Source of the DNA: a virus
Lineage: Duplodnaviria; Heunggongvirae; Uroviricota; Caudoviricetes
IMG/VR virus record: IMGVR_UViG_2740892019_000001
Strand: one strand, 5' to 3'
DNA: 6,466 nucleotides
Both the position numbers and the translations under genes were made by a program. Positions within the stretch are counted from its first letter, which is position 1, and each line of letters starts with the position of its first letter. Positions 3,260 through 4,559 of this stretch are shown here, one piece after another. The notes beneath the pieces were generated by a model. That model saw only the letters and a program-made list of their open reading frames with translations. It was not told the DNA's origin and did not search any database.

Positions 3260-4559
3260 TCTCCCGCATATTGCCAGCATGGCTTTTAATGAGCCGCTGA
3301 TGCTTGAACCCGCCTATGCGCGGGTTTTCTTTTGTGCGCTTGCAGGCCAGCTTGGGATCAGCCGCCTGACGGATGCGGTGTCCGGTGACAGCCTGACTGC
3401 CGGAGAGGCACCCGCGACGCTGGCGTTATCCGGTGATGGTGACGGACCACGACAGGCCCGCAGTTATCAGGTCATGAACGGCATCGCCGTGCTGCCGGTG
3501 TCCGGCACGCTGGTCAGCCGGACGCGGGCGCTGCAGCCGTATTCGGGGATGACCGGTTACAACGGCATTATCGCCCGTCTGCAACAGGCTGCCAGCGACC
3601 CGATGGTGGACGGCATTCTGCTGGATATGGACACGCCCGGCGGGATGGTGGCGGGAGCATTTGACTGCGCTGACATCATCGCCCGTGTGCGTGACATAAA
3701 ACCGGTATGGGCGCTGGCCAACGACATGAACTGCAGTGCAGGTCAGCTGCTTGCCAGCGCCGCCTCCCGGCGTCTGGTCACGCAGACCGCCCGGACAGGC
3801 TCCATCGGCGTCATGATGGCTCACAGTAATTACGGTGCTGCGCTGGAGAAACAGGGCGTGGAAATCACGCTGATTTACAGCGGCAGCCATAAGGTGGATG
3901 GCAACCCCTACAGCCATCTTCCGGATGACGTCCGGGAGACACTGCAATCCCGGATGGACGCAACCCGCCAGATGTTTGCGCAGAAAGTGTCGGCATATAC
4001 CGGCCTGTCTGTGCAGGCTGTGCTGGATACCGAGGCTGCAGTGTACAGCGGTCAGGAGGCCATTGATGCCGGACTGGCTGATGAACTTGTCAACAGCACC
4101 GATGCGATCACCGTTATGCGTGATGCACTGGATGCACGTAAATCCCGTCTCTCAGGAGGGCGAATGACCAAAGAGACTCAATCAACAGCTGTTTCAGCCA
4201 CTGCTTCGCAGGCTGACGTTACTGACGTGGTGCCAGCGACGGAGGGTGAAAACGCCAGCACGGCGCAGCCGGACGTGAACGCGCAGATCACTGCAGCGGT
4301 TGCGGCAGAAAACAGCCGCATTATGGGGATACTCAACTGTGAGGAGGCTCACGGACGCGAAGAACAGGCACGCGTGCTGGCAGAAACCCCCGGTATGACC
4401 GTGGAAACGGCCCGCCGCATTCTGGCTGCAGCACCACAGAGTGCACAGGCGCGCAGTGACACTGCGCTGGATCGTCTGATGCAGGGGGCACCGGCACCGC
4501 TGGCTGCAGGTAACCCGGCATCTGATGCCGTTAACGATTTGCTGAACACACCAGTGTAA
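3240..4559 (+). CDS. C: Head maturation protease / scaffold gpC (439 aa; S49 SppA-like serine peptidase family)
   Basis: GTG start at 3240, preceded by GAGGAGGAG at 3227-3235, overlapping the last 20 nt of B in a different frame. Product [22 protein letters not shown]... is recognised as lambda gpC. The ORF-track start at 3126 is an upstream in-frame extension lying inside B. Stop TAA at 4557-4559. Confidence 0.9.
3954..4559 (+). CDS. Nu3: Scaffolding protein Nu3 (201 aa), translated from an internal in-frame ATG of C and sharing the C-terminal third of gpC
   Basis: In-frame ATG at 3954 (MDATRQMFAQKVSAYTGLS...) in the same frame as C (3240 and 3954 are both 0 mod 3). This matches the nested C/Nu3 arrangement known for lambda. 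No strong SD is visible immediately upstream, so the start assignment rests on homology and recalled annotation rather than sequence signals. Confidence 0.68.
   Translation: MDATRQMFAQKVSAYTGLSVQAVLDTEAAVYSGQEAIDAGLADELVNSTDAITVMRDALDARKSRLSGGRMTKETQSTAVSATASQADVTDVVPATEGENASTAQPDVNAQITAAVAAENSRIMGILNCEEAHGREEQARVLAETPGMTVETARRILAAAPQSAQARSDTALDRLMQGAPAPLAAGNPASDAVNDLLNTPV

Follow-up and report, generated by a model that had tools for sequence, protein, structure and literature searches.

At which codon of the prohead protease gene C does the nested scaffold gene Nu3 begin? The question arises in a window (the whole stretch of 6466 bases that was analysed) whose ORF map has a lambda-type head-gene block on the + strand, the strand of every feature described below. 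The genes lie in the order 3′ part of A, W, B (1658-3259), C, D, E, and FI, and nucleotide identity to phage lambda is ~98% over the whole region; for the C region alone, identity is 97.8% to lambda (J02459) and 98.3% to the prophage-derived phage PhiR46_1. Window coordinates are lambda coordinates minus 1178, such that window 3240, 3954, and 4559 are lambda 4418 (the C start), 5132, and 5737, respectively. C/Nu3 sits between the portal gene B and the decoration gene D in the head operon, which has no separate scaffold gene, and gpC and its lambda counterpart have different residues at 8 of 439 positions, three of them in the C-terminal 131. The A-W-B-C/Nu3-D-E-FI synteny, the GTG start of C, and an internal AGGAGG-ATG are all as in lambda C/Nu3 (lambda 4418-5737), from which the window differs by few substitutions. 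Judged from sequence, this is the same C/Nu3 gene pair, in a lambda-like prophage or phage. The nested arrangement in lambda and its role in assembly are reportedly the findings of Ray & Murialdo in 1975, Shaw & Murialdo in 1980, and Medina et al. in 2010 and 2011.

Gene C and two candidate internal starts

Gene C (3240..4559; lambda 4418-5737) codes for a 439-aa prohead protease with a C-terminal scaffold domain, and runs from a GTG start to a TAA stop at 4557-4559. Its Shine-Dalgarno (SD) sequence, GAGGAGGAG (3227..3235), has a 4-nt spacer to GTG 3240 and a predicted pairing energy of -12.0 kcal/mol; it lies within the 3′ end of the portal gene B, which ends at 3259 and is overlapped by gene C by 20 nt, and is kept in homologues (mean dG -12.2). 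Residues 81-298 of gpC (3480..4133) align with Bacillus subtilis SppA (3rst_A, E=6.5e-22) as an SppA/S49-type serine protease fold, with the Pfam Peptidase_S49 core (PF01343, E=1.5e-44) at residues 150-297 (3687-4130). In the SppA alignment, the putative catalytic serine is Ser166 (3735..3737), within a motif that is NCSAG in gpC and AASGG at the SppA active site, and the putative general-base lysine of a Ser-Lys dyad is Lys218 (3891..3893); these catalytic roles are predicted from the alignment together with what is known of SppA. Both codons are upstream of both candidate nested starts, at 3954 and 4164. A single-sequence AlphaFold2 model of gpC was too poor to interpret (mean pLDDT 39.9).

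An earlier note on this DNA placed the start of Nu3 at ATG 3954 (3954..3956; lambda 5132), which is the 'nu3;201' start in GenBank. This ATG is in the C frame, as the note had it, and is the codon for Met239 of gpC; there are 201 sense codons from here to the stop, and the product would be the C-terminal 201 residues of gpC. The note was also right that no strong SD precedes it, as the sole SD-like match, GGGAG at 3934-3938, is 15 nt off and too distant to work; the computed pairing of -6.9 kcal/mol comes from this badly spaced match. Beyond its own start the C frame contains 17 ATGs, or 40 codons when GTG and TTG are counted as well, and nothing in the sequence sets 3954 apart among these in-frame starts. 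Because Met239 falls at position 92 of the 154 in the S49 profile, inside the protease fold, a 201-aa product would open mid-fold; its first 59 residues are a protease-fold fragment, and it is thus no domain unit.

We scored each in-frame ATG, GTG, and TTG in C for pairing with the 3′ end of 16S rRNA, and just two stand out, the C start (-12.0 kcal/mol) and ATG 4164 (-10.8 kcal/mol), the latter being by far the best of the in-frame starts downstream of the C start. The SD of ATG 4164, AGGAGGG (4154..4160), falls in the gpC codons Ser305-Gly306-Gly307, and there is a 4-nt spacer between AGGAGG (4154-4159) and the ATG. The reading frame that opens here (4164..4559; lambda 5342-5737) corresponds to gpC residues 309-439 and codes for a product of 131 aa, with a mass of 13.4 kDa and a pI of 4.35. 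Met309 lies 11 residues past the protease fold, which ends at residue 297 in the Pfam match and at 298 in the SppA alignment. The earlier description of a gene nested in the 3′ third of C does not suit the 201-codon frame, which takes up 46% of the gene (201/439); the 131-aa product from 4164 takes up 30%.

Codon 309 and codon 239 in diverged homologues

For comparison at the codon level we used 20 full-length diverged prophage sequences, obtained from a scan of one genome per species and residing in Enterobacter, Kluyvera, Citrobacter, Serratia, Cedecea, Marinobacter, and other hosts, with 43-77% amino acid identity to the window protein. Codon 309 is ATG in all 21 sequences (the 20 homologues and the window), and a GGAG-type SD precedes it in every one, with dG ranging from -6.5 to -11.8; the surrounding residues are conserved at only 19-57%. 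Codon 239 is ATG in just three of the 21, window included, and among the 20 homologues it specifies Ile in 17 and Leu in one, with ATG in the other two; none has an SD here, and the mean dG across homologues (-2.6) is at background level. When all 439 codons are scanned in this way, a conserved start together with a conserved SD is found only at the C start (mean -12.2) and at codon 309 (mean -9.4), against a gene-wide dG of -2.95 on average (sd 1.84). GTG 3858, a further start found in database records, was considered and rejected; a start codon stands at this position in only 3 of the 21 sequences, no SD is conserved there, and the site is deep in the protease domain.

The codons that make up the SD are unusual in their own right. 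Gly306 is encoded by GGA in 21/21 sequences, and GGA is the rarest Gly codon of these genes (12%); the remaining 15 invariant Gly columns use three to four codons each, and single-codon usage is seen in only 3 of 93 invariant columns other than Met and Trp. Residue 307 is variable (G/V/E/A), yet the first base of its codon is always G, and it is the combination of GGA at codon 306 with this G that keeps GGAG invariant. By this comparison the SD is under purifying selection, with the constraint acting on nucleotides, not on the protein.

The earlier note had supposed that, with no strong SD, initiation at 3954 may rely on coupling or on the structure of the mRNA. There is indeed a predicted 9-bp RNA hairpin at 3929..3956 (-16.2 kcal/mol), in which 3929-3937 is paired with 3948-3956, and its 91-nt context folds better than expected for its composition (z=-3.24; 0/200 shuffles fold as well). 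However, the hairpin pairs the ill-spaced GGGA (3934-3937) with ATG 3954 itself, and therefore argues against initiation there, not for it. The aligned segments in homologues have folding energies of -3.6 to -15.7 kcal/mol, such that the hairpin in the window is the strongest and is not a general feature. Folding upstream of 4164 is unremarkable (z=-0.26 and +0.38). Two estimates of mRNA accessibility in the window disagree, with one favouring 4164 and the other slightly favouring 3954; across homologues, 4164 is the more open (mean 5.5 vs 8.2 kcal/mol). A search for an internal promoter that could give a separate Nu3 transcript identified no promoter-like site in 3700-4700, and there was no Rfam match to a known RNA element in the window. 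A 2026 preprint speaks of a hairpin 'directly upstream of the scaffold start' (10.64898/2026.09.13.751334); it may have used the legacy coordinate here, as there is no strong hairpin other than the one at 3954.

The anatomy of the gene, its domain boundary, and the nucleotide-level selection on the SD and ATG all point to the same codon, and the true Nu3 start is almost certainly ATG 4164 (lambda 5342). ATG 3954 most likely does no more than encode a methionine within the protease domain. The proposal that Nu3 is nested in C, and starts at an internal in-frame codon, is in line with the established lambda arrangement and stands; the coordinate 3954 and the 201-aa size do not, as the comparative, domain-boundary, and SD evidence all give 4164, with a product of 131 aa and 13.4 kDa in place of one of ~20.8 kDa. 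The puzzle of initiation without an SD vanishes because the supported start carries a canonical AGGAGG, and recourse to mRNA structure or coupling is superfluous.

Routes to a free scaffold protein

The 131-aa product has two parts that differ in conservation. Residues 1-45 (4164..4298) are rich in Ser, Thr, Ala, and Gln, with a column conservation of 0.47 and 21 insertion columns, and likely form a flexible linker. Residues 46-131 (4299..4556) are the conserved scaffold core common to gpC and gpNu3, with a conservation of 0.78 and matches to phrog_1999 and phrog_17040. The lambda 131-aa product has a computed mass of 13,394 Da and a pI of ~4.5, which matches the ~13.4 kDa reportedly obtained for gpNu3 by purification and N-terminal sequencing. 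On SDS gels, gpNu3 reportedly runs at ~19-20 kDa, and this would be the source of the 201-aa assignment. Acidic, disordered proteins commonly migrate slowly on SDS gels, and an anomalously slow migration of this kind would account for that original assignment. A full-text literature search, with a reach that excluded the main Nu3 papers, found no experimental determination of the gpNu3 N-terminus.

The explanation that we favour, and hold to be very probable, is that a second ribosome-binding site in the C frame (AGGAGG at 4154-4159, ATG at 4164) yields a free 131-aa gpNu3. The gene C product would consist of the SppA/S49 domain, then the flexible linker, and then the C-terminal scaffold domain. 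We infer that ribosomes initiate independently at 4164 on the late mRNA to give abundant free gpNu3, equivalent to gpC residues 309-439, and that rarer initiation at GTG 3240 gives the protease-scaffold fusion gpC. The ratio of the two would be set at translation, C having a GTG that overlaps the end of B and Nu3 an ATG with a near-consensus SD. Because gpC and gpNu3 share the scaffold domain, the protease would co-assemble with the scaffold, the common domain bringing a few protease molecules into the procapsid along with many scaffold molecules; there, the protease would then degrade the scaffold and itself. Initiation at 4164, the stoichiometry, and the assembly role are thus proposals, and they agree with the earlier suggestion that one reading frame yields both a protease-scaffold fusion and a free scaffold, which matches the established lambda arrangement. 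The nesting of C and Nu3 in lambda is cited as established (10.64898/2026.09.13.751334).

Three other routes to the free scaffold can be envisaged. It is very unlikely that the legacy assignment is right and that free Nu3 is a protein of 201 aa (20.8 kDa) initiated at ATG 3954 in an SD-independent or structure-dependent manner. This start is annotated in GenBank J02459, HK630, HK629, DN1, and 434, phrog_8940 is built on it, and a 201-aa size is nearer to the reported SDS-PAGE mobility; however, 18 of the 20 diverged homologues have Ile or Leu at this codon and all are without an SD there, the SD-like match that lies 15 nt off in the window base-pairs with the ATG to form a hairpin of -16 kcal/mol, the product would open partway through the SppA fold with a domain fragment of ~60 residues, and other curators picked the equivalent of GTG 3858 or noted that Nu3 really starts at another place. 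We see only a slim chance that both starts are used, with 4164 as the main one and 3954 giving small amounts of a 201-aa isoform specific to lambda, for which the hairpin at 3929-3956 might serve as a gate. That hairpin is unusually stable for its composition (z=-3.24, 0/200 shuffles), and ATG is present at the 3954 position in lambda-type sequences and in 2 of the 20 diverged homologues, but a stable hairpin in a GC-rich coding region is not unusual, this one would occlude the ATG rather than present it, 3954 is without a functional SD, and neither the ATG nor the hairpin is conserved.

It is exceedingly unlikely that there is no internal initiation at all and that the free scaffold arises solely by autoproteolysis of full-length gpC, in the manner of P2 gpO. 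The precedent of P2 gpO and the processing by gpC of both itself and the scaffold speak for such a route (10.64898/2026.09.13.751334); nonetheless, cleavage would be expected to give protease and scaffold at 1:1, but scaffold is needed in large excess, and an invariant GGAG-N-ATG with codon-level constraint is hard to ascribe to protein function. Also counting against cleavage alone, Shaw & Murialdo are said to have shown in 1980 that Nu3 is made in C amber mutants.

Annotation, comparable systems, and more distant phages

That the scaffold gene is nested in the protease gene is correct and was known before, and 3954 is a legacy database coordinate that is contradicted here. In the lambda GenBank record, Nu3 is given as 5132-5737 (201 aa), whereas our evidence supports 5342-5737 (131 aa). 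The start at lambda 5132 is annotated in the J02459, HK630, HK629, DN1, and phage 434 records, and likewise in most derived records; the lambda imm21 and imm434 records have a 'capsid assembly protein' that begins at a GTG 96 nt upstream of 3954 (window 3858), and in several records the nested gene is absent from the annotation. The phage 434 record OL657226 copies the legacy start, yet has a note opening 'real Nu3 start'. Both lengths have a family in PHROGs, phrog_8940 for 201 aa and phrog_8399 ('head scaffolding protein') for 131 aa, and the 4164 product aligns with phrog_8399 over its full length (1-131 of 131). Gene calls identical to the lambda 131-aa protein are found on 165 contigs and the 201-aa version on six, with the listed accessions of the latter including the legacy-derived lambda, HK630, HK629, and DN1 records. 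The Nu3 coordinate of 1982 (201 aa) is still being copied into new phage records and has entered a PHROG family. A wrong start may mislead mechanistic comparisons, for example through the hunt for odd initiation signals at the wrong ATG, and working with the 131-aa product is important when expression constructs or mutants are designed and when mass-spectrometry data are searched.

Several other viruses combine a protease and a scaffold in one gene. HSV-1 UL26/UL26.5, together with the related OsHV-1 pair, follows the same logic, with a protease-scaffold ORF and a nested, in-frame, abundant scaffold that has the same C-terminus. The herpesvirus protease is an assemblin, however, with a fold unrelated to the S49/SppA fold seen here, and UL26.5 is made from its own transcript and promoter, whereas the window pair would rely on an internal SD on one mRNA. 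The window pair works like the UL26/UL26.5 family but is no member of it, because its protease is of the S49/SppA type and there is no promoter-like site in 3700-4700. In phage Mu, Z is the in-frame C-terminal product of the protease gene I, is made from an internal start, and acts as scaffold; the protease family and synteny of Mu I/Z differ from those of lambda C/Nu3. Phage P2 gpO resembles gpC in that one chain joins a protease at the N-terminus to a scaffold domain at the C-terminus, but is made only as the full-length protein, the parts of which are split by autoproteolysis, with no nested start (10.64898/2026.09.13.751334). In Haloferax tailed virus 1, gp17/gp17.5, an in-frame internal start in the prohead protease gene gives the scaffold, and the gp17.5 start was shown by initiation-arrested Ribo-seq and mass spectrometry (10.64898/2026.09.13.751334). 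Unlike the window pair, this archaeal virus has no SD at its internal start, and its protease has 20-23% identity to that of lambda.

The sole mildly new angle is that the nested start seems to be conserved, and to be essentially unannotated, in distant phages with S49-type proteases. We looked at six such phages with 30-54% identity: ev017, Xanthomonas phage FoX4, Rhodobacter phage RcPacific, Enc34, the chi-like phage iEPS5, and Ruegeria phage RpoS-V11. All have the gene order seen in the window, namely portal, protease (427-501 aa), decoration or minor capsid protein, and major capsid protein, and a separate scaffold gene is annotated in none of them. Each has an SD and an in-frame ATG at residues 295-303, just past the protease domain, with predicted products of 133-200 aa; that ATG is the top internal candidate in five of the six and the third in FoX4. 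A tblastn search identified 1044 phage records with such an S49-type protease.

We put the chances as even that an SD-driven scaffold start at the end of the S49 domain is a general feature of S49-protease phages that is almost never annotated; the family meant here includes Casjensviridae, the chi-like phages among them, Enc34, and the Rhodobacter and Ruegeria phages. If this is true, the 201-aa lambda annotation and the PHROG family based on it would be misleading transfer annotations, and hundreds of phage genomes seemingly without a scaffold gene would carry one as a nested ORF.

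Start codon and internal SD-like stretch of gene C

The GTG start codon of gene C (window 3240-4559, plus strand), which codes for the 439-aa protease gpC with its C-terminal scaffold domain, lies 20 nt within the 3′ end of portal gene B (overlap 3240-3259), an arrangement that suggests translational coupling and low expression of C. Codon alignment with the diverged homologues, which are prophage relatives with 43-77% amino acid identity, places an ATG at the start in 14 of the 15 aligned at that codon, and the weak GTG is thus particular to the lambda-type sequence.

Third in strength among the conserved SD-like stretches of gene C (mean dG -7.3 to -8.1) is the segment at 3645-3665, corresponding to gpC codons 136-142 and lying directly 3′ of ATG 3645 and GTG 3648 codons. 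The stretch overlaps the conserved protease motif TPGGMVAGAF, and this coincidence makes protein constraint on the Gly codons, rather than initiation, the most likely cause of the conservation.

Annotation of Nu3, gene D, and the PHROG families

The legacy start of the nested scaffold gene Nu3 (ATG 3954, giving 201 aa) is covered by a 9-bp predicted hairpin at 3929-3956, whose stability is unusual for its composition (z=-3.24) and which has its strongest version in the lambda-type sequence. It may be the structure to which a 2026 preprint (10.64898/2026.09.13.751334) refers as a hairpin located 5′ of the scaffold start in lambda. The legacy annotation also underlies phrog_8940, a family of 201-aa 'capsid assembly protein' sequences placed in the functional category 'tail', while phrog_8399, the 131-aa family, is categorized as 'head and packaging'. 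Another strong match to gpC is phrog_21, a portal family whose profile has a length of 1362; this suggests that the family includes fused or mis-merged portal-protease sequences.

The start call of gene D, too, differs among records. Two neighboring in-frame ATGs, ATGTTTATG, are present 5′ of the gene at 4563-4571; lambda and most records use the second (4569, lambda 5747), and PhiR46_1 and phage Turner the first (4563).

Lambda gene C in unrelated assemblies

The genome scan found sequences with 96-100% identity to lambda gene C in assemblies from unrelated organisms (loci L010-L018, L020-L023, L025-L027, L034, L038, L041, L044, and L050-L076), among them an Akkermansia MAG, Kitasatospora, Shewanella, Pseudomonas, Neobacillus, Chromatium, Bradyrhizobium, Veillonella, and Paenibacillus. 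Many of the contigs are short, with coverage of ~0.6-1.5x in several contig names, and these occurrences look like contaminating lambda control or spike-in DNA in public assemblies.

Nested scaffold of phage ev017

Escherichia phage ev017 (locus L165, 795-2300), one of six distant phages, codes for a longer protease of 501 aa, with a nested SD and ATG, AGAGGAGG (dG -12.0), at residue 302, from which the predicted scaffold would be 200 aa. Scaffold length would therefore range widely, from 120 to 200 aa, with the predicted nested start remaining constant at the domain boundary.
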